A stretch of 64,000 nt of DNA from a phage, in sequence record NC_100372.1; one strand, written 5' to 3'. The notes under the pieces are model-generated. The model saw only the letters and a program-made list of their open reading frames with translations, was not told the origin of the DNA and made no database searches. Shown here one piece after another: positions 28,966 through 38,480 of the stretch. Each line of letters begins with the position of its first letter. Position 1 is the first letter of the stretch. The position numbers were made by a program, and so were the translations under genes.

Positions 28966-29042
28966 TGGTCTCCACGGAGTGATTCGAACACTCGACCTCC
29001 TGATCCCAAATCAGGCGCTCTACCAAGCTGAGCTACGCGGAG
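28966..29042 (-). tRNA. tRNA-Pro (anticodon TGG), CCA encoded
   Basis: Manual fold: acceptor CTCCGCG/CGTGGAG (one G-T), D arm GCTC/GAGC, anticodon stem CCTGA/TCAGG with loop TTTGGGA, T arm GAGTG-TTCGAAT-CACTC, 3' ACCA. Confidence 0.75.
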
Positions 29043-29053
29043 TATTTATTATT

Positions 29054-29128
29054 TGGTGGCCCTGGGTGGAATTGAACCACCGTCTGGCGATTATGAGTCG
29101 CTTGCTTGAACCTTCCAGCTACAGGGCC
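29054..29128 (-). tRNA. tRNA-Met (anticodon CAT; initiator, elongator or Ile2-type undetermined), CCA encoded
   Basis: Manual fold: acceptor GGCCCTG/CAGGGCC, anticodon loop CTCATAA, T loop TTCAATT, 3' ACCA. Confidence 0.7.
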
Positions 29129-29129
29129 A

Positions 29130-29205
29130 TGGTGCTGATGGCAGGACTTGAACCTGCAACCTATTGATTACAAATCAATTGCACTGCCAATTGTGCTACA
29201 TCAGC
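29130..29205 (-). tRNA. tRNA-Thr (anticodon TGT), CCA encoded
   Basis: Manual fold: acceptor GCTGATG/CATCAGC, anticodon stem ATTGA/TCAAT with loop TTTGTAA, T arm GCAGG-TTCAAGT-CCTGC; 1 nt after tRNA-Met. Confidence 0.75.
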
Positions 29206-29211
29206 AAAAGG

Positions 29212-29308
29212 TGCTAGGTGATGGAATCGAACCACCTATGTATTCAACGACTACCTCGTCTATTTTCAGGATTAAAAATCCTCGCCCTTGCCAAAGGGCT
29301 TACCTAGC
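29212..29308 (-). ncRNA. atypical 97-nt tRNA-like element (possible Lys-UUU-type anticodon loop; not a canonical fold)
   Basis: Perfect 7-bp acceptor GCTAGGT/ACCTAGC, D arm GCCC-TTTGGCAA-GGGC, T arm GGTGG-TTCGATT-CCATC, but the central region is two short hairpins (AGGATTTTTAATCCT and GACGAGGTAGTCGTT), about 31 nt between anticodon-like hairpin and T stem; A at position 8; 3' end ACCT not CCA. Confidence 0.4.
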
Positions 29309-29406
29309 GCAATATGTTGACCATGTGGCTAGTCGGCGATGACGACTGTAACATTTGATAATCCGGTTCTGCTTCCGGCTTTCGCTTAATTACAAGGTCA
29401 ACAATG

Positions 29407-29497
29407 TGGCGGAGAGTAATGGAATCGAACCATCATCGAGTCATCCTCAACGGGACGGTTTTCAAGACCGCTTGAGCACCATTGCTCCCTACCCTCC
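29407..29497 (-). tRNA. tRNA-Ser (anticodon TGA), type II with long variable arm, CCA encoded
   Basis: Manual fold: acceptor GGAGGGT/ACTCTCC (one G-T), anticodon stem GCGGT/ACCGT with loop CTTGAAA, variable arm about 17 nt, T arm GATGG-TTCGATT-CCATT, 3' GCCA. Confidence 0.7.
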
Positions 29498-29611
29498 TTT
29501 ATAAATTACACTGATAATGACACTGATTTTCGAGCAGTTAGTGACTAGTATAAACGACGATAAATATCAATGTCATTATCTGTATGATTTATGCATTTAA
29601 AAATATAAATT

Positions 29612-29698
29612 TGGTGGGGAGTGGTGGAGTCGAACCACCCGAGTCGCAATGACAATAGATTTACAGTCTACACCGCTACCTCTACGGGATAACTCCCC
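29612..29698 (-). tRNA. tRNA-Tyr (anticodon GTA), long variable arm, CCA encoded
   Basis: Manual fold: acceptor GGGGAGT/ACTCCCC, anticodon stem GTAGA/TCTAT with loop CTGTAAA, T arm GGTGG-TTCGACT-CCACC, 3' ACCA. Confidence 0.7.
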
Positions 29699-29702
29699 AA
29701 TT

Positions 29703-29777
29703 TGGCACCCCGTACTGGACTCGAACCAGTGTCAACGGCTTAGAAGGCCGCTGCTTTATCCACTAAGCTAACAGGGC
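29703..29777 (-). tRNA. tRNA-Arg (anticodon TCT), CCA encoded
   Basis: Manual fold: acceptor GCCCTGT/ACGGGGT (two G-T), D arm GCTT/AAGC, anticodon stem GCGGC/GCCGT with loop CTTCTAA, T arm ACTGG-TTCGAGT-CCAGT, 3' GCCA. Confidence 0.7.
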
Positions 29778-29835: not shown

Positions 29836-29864
29836 ATATTACACTGTTAGGCAAAGTTTGTCAA
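29836..29864 (-). promoter_or_regulatory. consensus sigma70-type promoter for the tRNA operon
   Basis: Minus strand TTGACA (29864-29859), 17-nt spacer, TAATAT (29841-29836); about 60 nt upstream of tRNA-Arg 5' end. Confidence 0.6.
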
Positions 29865-29873
29865 GAAAATATT

Positions 29874-30212
29874 TTAACTATTGCCAACAGGCTGTATTTC
29901 TGTGGTAAATGGCATAAAAGGTGCTGGTTTTTCAGCCTCTTCTACTACCACCTCTTCCTCTTCACCAAACATCTCATCATATTCTTCCTGCATTCGGTCT
30001 GCCTTATCAAGAACATACTCTGCAATGCTTTGACGAATATTTTGTTTGGTTTTCGGGTCCAACATCAGCTCTCTTAAAACTTTGTGAGCTTCTGGAACCA
30101 TCGCTATAAAAGATTCCTTCATATCAAGAATGTTCTTCTCTAGCTGAATGGCGTTGGACTCCTCTTTCAGAGGTCTGCCTCTACGGCGACGCTTTTTAGT
30201 TGTATCCGCCAT
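29874..30212 (-). CDS. small basic protein with AT-hook-like motif
   Basis: Start set at internal ATG 30212 with RBS GGAGGA (ORF track start at 30332 lacks RBS); N-terminus MADTTKKRRRRGRPLKEE has GRP AT-hook core; acidic C-terminus. Confidence 0.4.
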   Translation of the reverse strand: MADTTKKRRRRGRPLKEESNAIQLEKNILDMKESFIAMVPEAHKVLRELMLDPKTKQNIRQSIAEYVLDKADRMQEEYDEMFGEEEEVVVEEAEKPAPFMPFTTEIQPVGNS

Positions 30213-30557
30213 GTTTCCTCCATTATCACGTGATAGGTGGATTTTATCACGGCAAATACTGATTGTCAAGTTCGCCGCAGGGTGGTATTCCCTGCGACTT
30301 GCCCAGCGTCCTGGACCAGCAAGACCCAACAAGTGGGTTACCAGATACCCATTACCGCGCTCTGGCTCGACCTTATTACAGGTTGGCTGGGGTCACATCG
30401 TCATGTGCTGGCTGCCCCTACCATTTTAAGTGTGGTGCACTATCAAGCCCTCTAAGGGGAACTCAGCCTTCTCCGAACCCTGTTTCAAAGCATCCGGAGA
30501 TAAAGCCATCAAACTCATCTTTAAATTGGATATTCATCATGATACACGAAAACAACC

Positions 30558-30800
30558 TCATTGTAAAGCACAAATAAATAAAACATACTTAATTTGTTTG
30601 TTATCGGGCTCAGGGTAGAAGTAGAAGATCTTGCTATCACCAATCTGAACACCACCATCCCAACAACATAAACCATAACCAGTATTCATACAAGCTAAGT
30701 CGTTGGCAAAATCTATTGCATCATCTAGTGCACGAAATTCACCTTCATCTTCTAAATAATCCTCATTCATGGAACGGAAAACGAGCTTAACCTTAAACAT
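30558..30800 (-). CDS. hypothetical protein
   Basis: 80-aa ORF on the minus strand. Confidence 0.3.
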   Translation of the reverse strand: MFKVKLVFRSMNEDYLEDEGEFRALDDAIDFANDLACMNTGYGLCCWDGGVQIGDSKIFYFYPEPDNKQIKYVLFICALQ

Positions 30801-31654: not shown

Positions 31655-32160
31655 AGCAGACTCCTCTTCAAGTTATAGAAAAAACTCACTGTATCGCTTT
31701 GTAACGAGCTTTTCTATCAAACTGGTGCGATTGCCTTACTTGGTATAGTTTATATAGCTGTGGAGCGATTTAGGGGCCTTCTTGTCAGTTTCCACACATA
31801 AACTTTATCCGAACTCGCGCGGGAGGCTCTCAACCGACTCCTTCCGGCGCTGGCAAGCTTTCGTCGGTGGTCCACATTAGTGCTCGGCCTTTGGCCTGTG
31901 CTATCGCTTCGCTCCCACACATGTTAACAGTCCTGCATGTATGCACTTCTGTTATTGTGTGCACTATGGAGGCCCGGCATCTCGCCCCTCGTAGGCGAGT
32001 GCCAATGAAGGGCCGACACTACCCATAATAAGTAATAAATTTAAAACATGGTACTTAGGATCTAGTATATTCTACATAAGTTAAGTATATGTACTTTAGT
32101 ACCATAAGTACTAGATCTTTTATTTTTTATTATTTAGTTATTTTAGTTATATTCTTTATG

Positions 32161-32243
32161 TGTCCGTATCACGGACAGTTAGTGTCCGTATTACGGGCAA
32201 ATGTGTCCGCGTGACGGACAGTAGTGTCCGTATCACGGACAGT
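32161..32243. repeat. array of four phased palindromic sites (consensus GTGTCCGTATCACGGACAG)
   Basis: Copies start at 32161, 32183, 32204, 32225 (21-22 bp phasing); copies 1 and 4 identical, 2 and 3 degenerate; each has 7-bp inverted arms TGTCCGT / ACGGACA. Confidence 0.65.
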
Positions 32244-32316
32244 TACTAACCTCTGTTCCATAGTGAACATAAAACATACAAATCCTTATAGTACAGATGT
32301 TTAAGTTTTTACTGGT

Positions 32317-37197: not shown

Positions 37198-38480
37198 TGC
37201 ATCAGATCAAAACAACACTGTACGCACTGAACAAAGATGGCAGCTACCAACAGTGGAAAGTATTCACGGATGGTGATAAGGTTATTGTAGAGTTTGGCAA
37301 GCTTGATGGTAAACTGCAATACAAAGAGACGATCTGCACACCTAAGAACGTGGGTCGTGCCAATGAAACTACAGCTGAGCAACAGGCTGAGCTGGAAGCG
37401 ATCAGTAAGTGGGAAAAACAAGTCCGTCTGGGGTATGTTGAAAATATGGAAGATTGCGAGCAGGGTGTTGACCTTTTACCCATGCTGGTGCATGACTACC
37501 TGAAGCGTGGAAAGGCACTTAAATTACCTTGCTGGATCTTGCGTAAGTTAGATGGCCTTCGTCTACTGGTTGTTTTCCAAAACGGTGAGCCTAAATTTAT
37601 TTCCCGTGGTAATAAGTCCTACCCTATTCAAGGAAAGCTTCTGGAGCAACTTCGTTCTTTCCACTTCACCACCGGGATTAAACAGCTCGACGGAGAGATC
37701 TATATTCATGGTCTGCCTCTGCAGAAAATAGTGTCTCTTGCTAAACGTTGGCGCACACAGGAAGAGATTCAGGCCGAGATCGATAAAGACTACGAGGCAG
37801 ATAAAAAACGCCGTCATGCCGCAATTAAGGCAGGCTTATCAACATACAAAAACTTCAATAAGGTAGATATTCCTGTTGATGTTGAGCCTGTTCGTGATGA
37901 TTTGCGTTACGGAGGGTACTGTAGCTATGACTTAGAGTATCATATTTTCGACATCCCTAGTGACAAGGTATGGTGGGATCCGGAAACAGAATCTGGACGA
38001 TGCAAGGATCTTATGGATGCAGAAGATACCATTACCACTCTGATGCTTGACCATATCAAGGTTGTTGACGCAGAGCTTGCGTACACAGTTGATCATTGCG
38101 AAGAATCTGTTGGTGTATTCATGTCCGAAGGATATGAAGGTACTATCATGCGTAACTTCTGTGGTAAATACGAATACGGTCAGCGAACATCTGAAGCATT
38201 GAAATGGAAAAAGTTCAACGATGCTGAGGTGAAAGTTATTGACGTTGAGAAAGATAAGAATGATGAAGGTGTTCTTATCTGTGTTGACAAGGAAGGTATC
38301 GTTGTTAAAATGAAGATGAAAGGTACGCACGAGGAGCGTAGCTATGACAGGATGCAGGAAATGATCGGCAAGTTTGTCACCTTCAAATATCAAGCAAGGA
38401 CAGAAGACAACAACTACCAATTCCCTGTCGGCATCTGCGTCCGAAATGTTAACCCAGACACTTGGGAGGTTCTGGAATGA
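37197..38480 (+). CDS. ATP-dependent DNA ligase
   Basis: 427 aa; adenylation motif I KLDGLR (KxDG), motif IV-like EGYEGTIMR, motif V-like LKWKK. Confidence 0.8.
   Translation: MHQIKTTLYALNKDGSYQQWKVFTDGDKVIVEFGKLDGKLQYKETICTPKNVGRANETTAEQQAELEAISKWEKQVRLGYVENMEDCEQGVDLLPMLVHDYLKRGKALKLPCWILRKLDGLRLLVVFQNGEPKFISRGNKSYPIQGKLLEQLRSFHFTTGIKQLDGEIYIHGLPLQKIVSLAKRWRTQEEIQAEIDKDYEADKKRRHAAIKAGLSTYKNFNKVDIPVDVEPVRDDLRYGGYCSYDLEYHIFDIPSDKVWWDPETESGRCKDLMDAEDTITTLMLDHIKVVDAELAYTVDHCEESVGVFMSEGYEGTIMRNFCGKYEYGQRTSEALKWKKFNDAEVKVIDVEKDKNDEGVLICVDKEGIVVKMKMKGTHEERSYDRMQEMIGKFVTFKYQARTEDNNYQFPVGICVRNVNPDTWEVLE

Follow-up and report, generated by a model that had tools for sequence, protein, structure and literature searches.

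Genes and signals around the element

The window, a 64-kb stretch of phage DNA, is 100% identical to Escherichia phage EduardKellenberger (Bas59, MZ501061), an rV5-like Vequintavirus. The region under study, 30213–30557, lies between the stop codon of bas59_0205 at 30558 and the end of the bas59_0207 leader at 30213, and the genes around it are all on the minus strand. Seven tRNA genes (28966–29777) are located downstream; the distance to the tRNA promoter (29836–29864) is ~350 nt from 30213, not the 450 nt given in the original prediction. The region consists of three minus-strand parts, listed here together with a promoter-like site that overlaps the third.

30213–30271, minus strand: sigma-70 promoter P74 and the leader of bas59_0207
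30272–30462, minus strand: the stretch carrying the RNA motif, without annotation in Bas59, FV3 and rV5
30463–30573, minus strand: probable micro-gene bas59_0206, 36 aa (MRLFSCIMMNIQFKDEFDGFISGCFETGFGEG)
30539–30567, minus strand: promoter-like site TTTACA-17-TATCAT, inside bas59_0206

P74, which is annotated in rV5 and scored 11/12 in a consensus scan, comprises a −35 box TTGACA (30264–30269), a 17-nt spacer and a −10 box TAAAAT (30241–30246) with an extended TG, and is kept in all 13 relatives compared. It is followed by the Shine-Dalgarno sequence GGAGG and the ATG of bas59_0207 at 30212. This part is an ordinary promoter and leader, outside the RNA motif. At the other end, the ATG of bas59_0206 overlaps the stop codon of bas59_0205 (ATGA), and the AT-rich portion from 30463 to 30557 falls inside the region. 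The bas59_0206 product matches phrog_6828 (E 3.5e-9), and its 13 Vequintavirus sequences show six synonymous vs one non-synonymous change, with a variable last codon. The gene is annotated in Bas59, LL12, V18, naswa and NHEP1, and the KDEFDGF segment is retained in a sister clade as an 8-aa ORF with a good Shine-Dalgarno sequence, suggesting that bas59_0206 is probably a genuine micro-gene. The promoter-like site within it (10/12 in the consensus scan) might be the start of a transcript carrying the RNA; the scan detected no dedicated consensus promoter immediately upstream of the RNA stretch in Bas59. An intrinsic terminator, defined as a GC-rich hairpin plus a U tract, was not found in 30213–30600, where the last hairpin of the RNA stretch (Hc, below) is instead followed by GGCGAAC.

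The whole 345 bp had been described as a GC-rich island. The excess is real but confined to ~30270–30480, which has 56.9% GC vs 43.5% for the whole window. This segment contains the joint-highest 150-nt and the second-highest 211-nt GC values in the 64 kb, and just 0.04% of all 211-nt intervals equal it. The full 345 bp has merely 49% GC (top 4%), because 30480–30557 is AT-rich. The middle part itself (30272–30462, 57% GC) starts 3 nt past the stop codon of the micro-ORF and runs to the −35 box of P74.

The three plus-strand ORFs noted earlier do exist and overlap (30148–30429, 93 aa; 30237–30455, 72 aa; 30263–30577, 104 aa). None has a PHROG family match, and 1-nt indels among close relatives would frameshift all three; by these comparisons they are spurious, as had been supposed, and "hypothetical protein" annotations on the plus strand of some Vequintavirus genomes should be deleted. 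The 72-aa ORF is annotated in one genome, and a minus-strand ORF extended from TTG is also present in the region. The absence of minus-strand ORFs, also claimed originally, applies to ORFs of at least 40 aa lying wholly inside the region, but the 36-aa micro-ORF covers its right-hand 95 bp. For 30272–30462, we found no conserved frame among relatives and no protein family match on either strand. In addition, 1-nt indels occur inside this stretch within the genus Vequintavirus, and the corresponding frames are closed in T-even relatives. Judged from these frames, the stretch is non-coding, and the idea that it is a decayed protein gene is rejected.

Fold of the core motif and its covariation

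The only match to the covariance model R1 accepted in the window is a core motif at 30331–30421 (77 bits, E ~5e-19; cmsearch with filters off). The core comprises a helix P1, a pseudoknot (PK) and a three-way junction of P4, P3 and P5 with near-invariant ACCUGUAAUAAGGUCGAGCC...GCGGUAAUG. The pseudoknot joins the P1 loop to the 3′ tail, and the junction sits between P1 and the tail. The elements of the RNA stretch, in 5′ to 3′ order, are as follows.

30419–30459, minus strand: Vequintavirinae-specific 5′ domain, hairpin CCCC-UUAGA-GGG (30448–30459) and then CUUGAUAGUGCACCACACUUAAAAUGGUA; predicted fold
30331–30421, minus strand: core pseudoknotted motif
30415–30418, minus strand: P1 5′ strand GGGG, pairing with CCCC at 30389–30392
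30408–30412, minus strand: pseudoknot 5′ strand GCCAG in the P1-closed loop, pairing with CUGGU at 30340–30344
30394–30407, minus strand: P2 hairpin CACAU-GACG-AUGUG, a variable arm
30389–30392, minus strand: P1 3′ strand CCCC
30385–30387, minus strand: P4 5′ strand GCC, pairing with GGU at 30347–30349 and closing the three-way junction
30371–30382, minus strand: P3 hairpin CCU-GUAAUA-AGG, with an invariant stem and a variable loop
30350–30370, minus strand: junction UCGA, P5 and GGUAA-UG, with GGUAA nearly invariant
30357–30366, minus strand: P5 mini-hairpin GC-CAGAGC-GC, with one covarying pair
30347–30349, minus strand: P4 3′ strand GGU
30340–30344, minus strand: pseudoknot 3′ strand CUGGU
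30277–30337, minus strand: Vequintavirus-specific 3′ hairpins Ha (30325–30337), Hb (30298–30323) and Hc (30277–30295)

The order of elements is shared by all lineages described below: P1a (4–5 nt), 2–4 nt, PKa, a variable P2 or a 7–9-nt linker and P1b, followed by P4a (3 nt), AA, P3, UCGA, P5, GGUAA-UG, P4b, 0–8 nt and PKb. Both sides of P1 change between lineages, giving GGGG/CCCC, GGGAA/UUCCC, GGGAG/CUCCC, AAAGG/CCUUU, AAAGC/GCUUU, AAAGA/UCUUU, GGAAC/GUUCC, GAGUG/CACUC, GAGGG/CCCUC and UGAGG/CCUCA. P4 occurs as GCC/GGU, GCC/GGC, ACC/GGU, GGC/GCC, GGC/GCU, GCG/CGU, GCA/UGU, ACU/AGU, CUGG/CCAG and CCC/GGG. P2 is compensated in the sister clade (CUACG-GACG-CGUAG), longer in T4-like phages, and missing in a Klebsiella-phage lineage and in phage Ivi. 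The covarying pair of P5 changes from GC to CG in the relative L030, and second copies of the motif have GUC/GAC vs GCC/GGC. The P3 stem is uninformative on pairing because it practically never varies (all but one cell unchanged across 67 distinct sequences, 99.5% paired), and its loop variants include GUAACA, GUAAAA, GUGAAA, GUAGCA and AUAAUA. About 30 nt are nearly invariant (ACCUGU.A.AAGGUC.AGC...G.GCGGUAA), although the search patterns used to gather the members included the core, which makes it look more invariant than it is. The invariant P3 and junction nucleotides mark a strongly constrained surface and are silent on pairing; their invariance may just as well stem from a constraint acting on the DNA itself.

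The pairing was assessed in a structure-blind MAFFT alignment of 38 distinct elements, in which 94.1% of the cells were paired vs 78.1% after shuffling (0/500 as good). Both-sided changes were found in 5/5 P1 pairs and 3/3 P4 pairs. When the partner strands were slid by 1–3 columns, the paired fraction was 24–51%. A covariance model built from this alignment was used to align 84 matches, 67 of them distinct, yielding 94.9% paired cells vs 77.7% in the shuffled control and a covariation score of 0.488 vs 0.167. Kinship alone can let sequences beat a shuffle control without any structure, but here both the slid controls and the variety of independent pair types speak against this. Counts of G-U vs A-C combinations (22 vs 13) weakly favour the proposed strand. 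Folding of single sequences was unremarkable (z = −0.64 for 191 nt and −2.26 for 345 nt), and the minimum-free-energy fold did not recover P4 or the pseudoknot. Likewise, a naive RNAalifold run on a mixed T-even alignment returned invariant hairpins only, with no covariation; the covarying helices appeared only once the sequences had been sorted by lineage.

Since a covariance model cannot represent pseudoknots, the pseudoknot was tested apart. Twelve lineage representatives carry 12 different complementary pairs at the equivalent position:

Bas59: GCCAG/CUGGU
Sister clade: GUGAGGG/CCCUUAC; GAGG/CCUC
Klebsiella-phage lineage: GCGGA/UCCGU
Ivi: CUCCGG/CCGGAG
L047: AAACCA/UGGUUU
T4-like type B: UCGCCGA/UCGGUGA; CACAC/GUGUG; CGC/GCG
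T4-like type C: CCUG/CAGG
T4: CUG/CAG
L057: CCC/GGG

The summed best-helix length was 59 vs 44–46 ± 3 under two null models (0/5000 as good). In an ungapped MAFFT alignment of 19 distinct T4-like type-B elements, the three core pseudoknot pairs were 100% paired, with seven double changes in each of two of them. In JEP1 and L123, the register is shifted, with GCUGG pairing with CCAGC. Taken together, these alignments show that compensatory changes have preserved the proposed fold in seven or more phage lineages.

The hairpins flanking the core are mostly invariant within the genus. In the 3′ set, compensatory change was confined to the inner stem of Hb, where CCAG-GACG-CUGG is replaced by CUAG/CUAG in FV3 and CUCAG/CUGAG in L030; L123 lacks Ha, and Hc is without any variation. 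The 5′ domain (30419–30459) has hardly changed in the sister clade, which also carries a similar CCCAUAGAGGG(A)CUUGAAAGUGC block 3′ of the core. As this domain shows no covariation, its fold is a prediction only.

Two other candidates in the window were rejected. The next-best model match (38011–38086, 19 bits) is antisense within a 427-aa ORF and was judged a chance hit. A second GC-rich island (31740–32030), considered as a paralogue, is unrelated to the motif and confined to Vequintavirus.

Distribution and genomic setting

A sensitive blastn search with the 345 bp matched 118 Vequintavirus genomes at 95–100% identity, and ~560 T4-like genomes that share 45 nt only (30346–30390) at 89–95% identity. 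With a T4-like element as the query, we obtained 1021 phage records, from phages of Escherichia, Klebsiella, Enterobacter, Yersinia, Salmonella, Erwinia and Serratia. Extra lineages came from pattern scans of IMG/VR and metagenomes, filtered with a covariance model. They comprise a sister Vequintavirinae-like clade (L031–L034 and others), whose neighbouring protein is 69–73% identical; ~46–70 kb contigs related to the Klebsiella phages VLCpiS13d, KlebP_265, BUCT541 and ZCKP8; the 44.9-kb phage Ivi; and two uncultured lineages (L047, and L057 with L082).

The comparison with host genomes gave no match among 5,426 E. coli genomes. The exact core was absent from 185,579 bacterial and archaeal species genomes, and a degenerate 18-base pattern produced 15 hits in the species genomes vs ~17 expected by chance, all of at most 26 bits, with no credible copy. 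By these searches, the motif is restricted to phages. The suggestion of a horizontally acquired island holds only to the extent that a 45-nt core is 89–95% identical to T4-like phages, but nothing in the region resembles host DNA.

In T4, the motif is located at 64,870–64,940 of NC_000866, between denV and vs.8 and inside the annotated N-terminus of vs.8: the reference annotates a 219-aa Vs.8 whose N-terminal extension crosses the motif. An in-frame stop codon lies between the motif and the conserved vs.8 start in 36 of ~40 T-even variants, and close T-even relatives have 1-nt indels within the element. These frame comparisons suggest that the extension is probably an annotation artefact and the T4 vs.8 start codon mis-annotated. 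In nearly every T4-like genome, the motif extends from the upstream gene's stop codon to 40–100 nt before the vs.8 start, and it borders a region of variable gene content, with denV, ip4 or other genes upstream.

The surroundings differ in the other lineages. In the sister clade, TTGACA-17-TATACT (11/12, with an extended −10) precedes the core by ~50 nt, and the next gene has a consensus promoter of its own ~40 nt past the core. In L047, an 11-bp intrinsic terminator begins 7 nt after the motif, and in Ivi the motif has a terminator on one side and the next promoter on the other. The Klebsiella-phage lineage has a promoter followed by an array of stem-bracketed non-coding modules, one of which is the motif and another tRNA-like, and then tRNA genes. 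Same-strand tRNA genes are found 250–730 nt from the motif in Bas59, the sister clade, five Klebsiella-phage-like contigs and L047, and tRNA genes lie within 1 kb of it in three independent lineages. The orientation of the motif always agrees with that of the flanking genes, promoters and terminator. A search for a protein partner by co-occurrence detected no vs.8 homologue and no accessory protein shared between the Bas59 window and the loci of other lineages, and the proteins adjoining the motif have no known function.

What the RNA may do

The original prediction had offered a structured RNA as one alternative, and the covariation across many phage lineages strongly supports it: on comparative grounds, the element is very probably a genuine conserved structured RNA. 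The predicted "ORF-free island" accordingly narrows to its central ~190 nt, the flanks being an ordinary promoter and a probable micro-gene. Our favoured reading, to which we assign a probability of about 65% as a whole, is that 30272–30462 is a structured non-coding RNA, with a 90-nt core belonging to an uncatalogued phage family, that binds a factor as an RNA in its own right. Its mechanistic part, a factor-binding element acting in trans, is tentative when taken alone. We infer an independent function because promoters separate the motif from the downstream gene in three lineages and because it is a module among tRNAs elsewhere. In Bas59, the RNA would form the 3′ part of a bas59_0205–0206 transcript, started from promoter P75 or from the promoter-like site at 30539–30567. 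Afterwards it would either be processed into a stable small RNA or remain part of a longer transcript that continues into bas59_0207 and the tRNA operon. The invariant junction might conceivably serve as the recognition site of a phage factor, or of a macromolecule that is conserved throughout Enterobacterales. Since the motif recurs beside tRNA genes, the likeliest partner would be a component of tRNA processing or translation.

The motif has no catalogued counterpart in our searches. Rfam 15 reported tRNAs only in the window, no family matched 30213–30557 in the Infernal search, and neither gathering nor permissive thresholds gave anything on the motif in the Bas59, T4, Klebsiella-phage, sister-clade, Ivi, L047 and L057 loci. 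No tRNA or tmRNA was detected in 30213–30557 by ARAGORN or the Rfam tRNA model. The core sequence was not found in the searchable literature, where we also came across no description of an RNA in the denV–vs.8 interval or in a Vequintavirus.

Several known RNAs provide points of comparison. T4 species 1 and species 2 (rnaC, rnaD) are stable, structured small RNAs of the T4 tRNA operon that are co-transcribed and processed with the tRNAs. The context of our motif in the Klebsiella-phage lineage, in L047 and, loosely, in Bas59 resembles that setting, but no sequence relationship was detected and the T4 motif lies outside the tRNA cluster. GOLLD and ROOL are structured RNAs of 500–800 nt, often beside tRNA genes, mostly in prophages of Firmicutes and other phyla. 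The motif is likewise a conserved, structured phage RNA near tRNAs; it differs from them in being ~90 nt long, in occurring in virulent Enterobacterales phages and in matching no Rfam family. Plant-virus tRNA-like structures have a pseudoknotted acceptor arm, and P1 together with the pseudoknot (8–12 bp) beside the junction domain could form an L-shaped mimic. This likeness is topological only, and the motif has no 3′ CCA, no T-loop or D-loop signatures and no ARAGORN or Rfam tRNA match. The association with tRNA genes makes a partner from the tRNA machinery plausible.

A serious rival, above all in T4-like phages, is that the motif is a cis-acting mRNA element, namely a structured 3′-UTR or intercistronic module that governs the processing, decay, termination or translation of the flanking genes; variants include Rho-dependent or read-through termination and a riboswitch-like ligand sensor for the downstream gene. 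The fixed position between the upstream stop codon and vs.8 in almost every T4-like genome fits such a role, and so does the arrangement in Bas59, where the RNA stretch starts 3 nt past the micro-ORF stop. The combination of a pseudoknot with a compact junction of unvarying nucleotides, as in the motif, is typical for aptamers that bind ligands. However, the downstream gene varies by lineage, with no vs.8 homologue in the Bas59 window or at the other loci. The consensus promoter that intervenes between the motif and the next gene in Bas59, the sister clade and Ivi means that this gene is also expressed without the motif. At the Klebsiella-phage and L047 loci, the motif has tRNAs and a terminator as neighbours rather than an ORF. 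On balance, we consider cis action unlikely, although it deserves to be taken seriously.

Self-cleavage of the motif, as a ribozyme processing polycistronic or tRNA-containing transcripts in the manner of the HDV-like theta ribozymes, which occur beside phage tRNAs (PMC10879173), is improbable. The motif is small, pseudoknotted and found in tailed phages, tRNA genes are nearby in several lineages, and the order P1a-PKa-hairpin-P1b-domain-PKb resembles the nested HDV-like order P1, P2, P3, P1′, P4, P2′, except that the hairpin is missing in two lineages. The HDV-like and theta ribozymes have a catalytic cytosine at the first J4/2 position, and its mutation from C to U inactivates them (PMC10879173). 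In the motif, no cytosine is conserved there: different lineages have A, U or G directly after P4b, or no nucleotide at this position. In addition, P1 has 4–5 bp vs ~7, the P3-like hairpin is dispensable, and a large invariant three-way junction replaces P4. Unlike theta ribozymes, the motif does not abut tRNA ends but lies 250–730 nt from them. The HDV, hammerhead, twister, pistol and hatchet models gave no match at E values up to 10 in the region under study and up to 5 in five other lineages.

The remaining readings are less probable still. A DNA-level element with an incidental RNA fold, such as a hairpin in single-stranded DNA, a site bound by a protein or a recombination hotspot bordering a variable region, might explain why ~30 nt are nearly invariant across unrelated phage families and why the T4-like motif borders a region of variable gene content, and the G-U vs A-C counts discriminate the strands weakly. 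We nevertheless regard it as very unlikely: compensatory changes in three helices, including the pseudoknot, are unexpected for a duplex-DNA site, the pseudoknot helices of the 12 representatives contain G-U but zero A-C pairs, and the motif is invariably oriented like the neighbouring genes, promoters and terminator. That the stretch is a functionless quirk of composition, or what is left of a decayed protein gene, as the three plus-strand ORFs, the TTG-extended minus-strand ORF and the single annotation of the 72-aa ORF might suggest, has a negligible probability in view of the lack of a protein family match, the frameshifting indels in close relatives, and conservation with covariation spanning phage families of otherwise unrelated genomes.

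In a bolder and distinctly speculative reading, the motif would represent a new functional RNA class of virulent Enterobacterales phages including T4. Such an RNA could be catalytic, sense a ligand, or engage the tRNA, translation or anti-phage machinery of the host as a decoy or mimic. It would have been overlooked because the T4 reference annotation puts it within the vs.8 coding sequence. T4 and its relatives are among the best-studied viruses, and yet the motif is uncatalogued as an RNA and, in T4, annotated as protein-coding. The ~30 near-invariant nucleotides across unrelated phage genomes, together with the absence of the motif from the bacterial genomes searched, suggest a specific molecular partner and a phage-specific job in lytic infection. 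T4 and the BASEL phage Bas59 on E. coli K-12 offer direct test systems for this role. If the partner is the tRNA, translation or defence machinery, the motif would constitute a new RNA-based layer of host takeover.

Hairpins in and beside the motif, and the neighbouring micro-ORF

GACG tetraloops closing compensated stems are a repeated feature of the Vequintavirinae form of this RNA. They cap the variable hairpin P2 of the pseudoknotted motif, the Vequintavirus-specific hairpin Hb on its 3' side, and a hairpin in L031, a member of the sister clade of Vequintavirinae-like contigs:

window 30394-30407, P2, CACAU-GACG-AUGUG
window 30306-30317, Hb stem, CCAG-GACG-CUGG
L031 about 2290-2305, sister-clade hairpin, CUACG-GACG-CGUAG

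The micro-ORF bas59_0206 (36 aa; window 30463-30573, minus strand) begins within the stop codon of bas59_0205, the two codons sharing the sequence ATGA, and its sequence changes are mostly synonymous. All that is left of it in the sister clade is MKDEFDGF, which is preceded by a strong Shine-Dalgarno site.

Other features of the window

Four further features lie on either side of the motif:

29210-29308, minus strand, 99-nt tRNA
29407-29497, minus strand, tRNA-Ser
31740-32030, second GC-rich island (53-59% GC), unannotated
32160-32245, four tandem repeats of 21-22 bp

The 99-nt tRNA, whose four-base anticodon was left unassigned by ARAGORN, is annotated as tRNA-Lys in Bas59; the tRNA-Ser, also called by ARAGORN, is annotated in the related Vequintavirus genome rV5 but not in Bas59. 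Conservation of the GC-rich island was limited to Vequintavirus in blastn searches, and the island matched no Rfam family at the gathering score and showed no relationship to the pseudoknotted motif. Every unit of the tandem repeats contains the palindrome GTCCGTATCACGGAC, and the array lies directly downstream, in the minus-strand sense, of bas59_0199, a putative regulator or replication-initiator gene. The repeats resemble an array of operators or iterons.

Motif copies and the vs.8 start in T-even phages

The motif occurs twice in tandem in some Karamvirus-like T-even genomes, where the second copy (L049 5080-5170, L051 9101-9192 and L133 443-534) is divergent, with a P5 of 3 bp and a CGC loop. 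The sole copy in Mosigvirus EP32B (L037 1474-1555) is truncated, lacking P1 and PKa, the 5' strand of the PK helix, and its P3 is mutated. In the T4 reference (NC_000866), the motif, at about 64,870-64,940, is overlapped by the N-terminal extension of vs.8, annotated as 219 aa (64253-64912). Among about 40 T-even variants, 36 have an in-frame stop that closes the extension, and the true vs.8 start is therefore probably the methionine of MRTFLTG.

A possible multi-RNA array in a Klebsiella-phage-like contig

Contig L050 (1720-2620), which is related to Klebsiella phages VLCpiS13d, KlebP_265, BUCT541 and ZCKP8, carries, in this order, a promoter, non-coding modules spanning ~700 nt, tRNA-Arg and tRNA-Met. 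The pseudoknotted motif is one of these modules, and another is tRNA-like (2240-2317). Repeated complementary sequences, CACACAACAGGTAAGAGCATT and AGTGCTCTTWYCGTTGTG, bracket the modules. The array looks like a processed multi-RNA operon.
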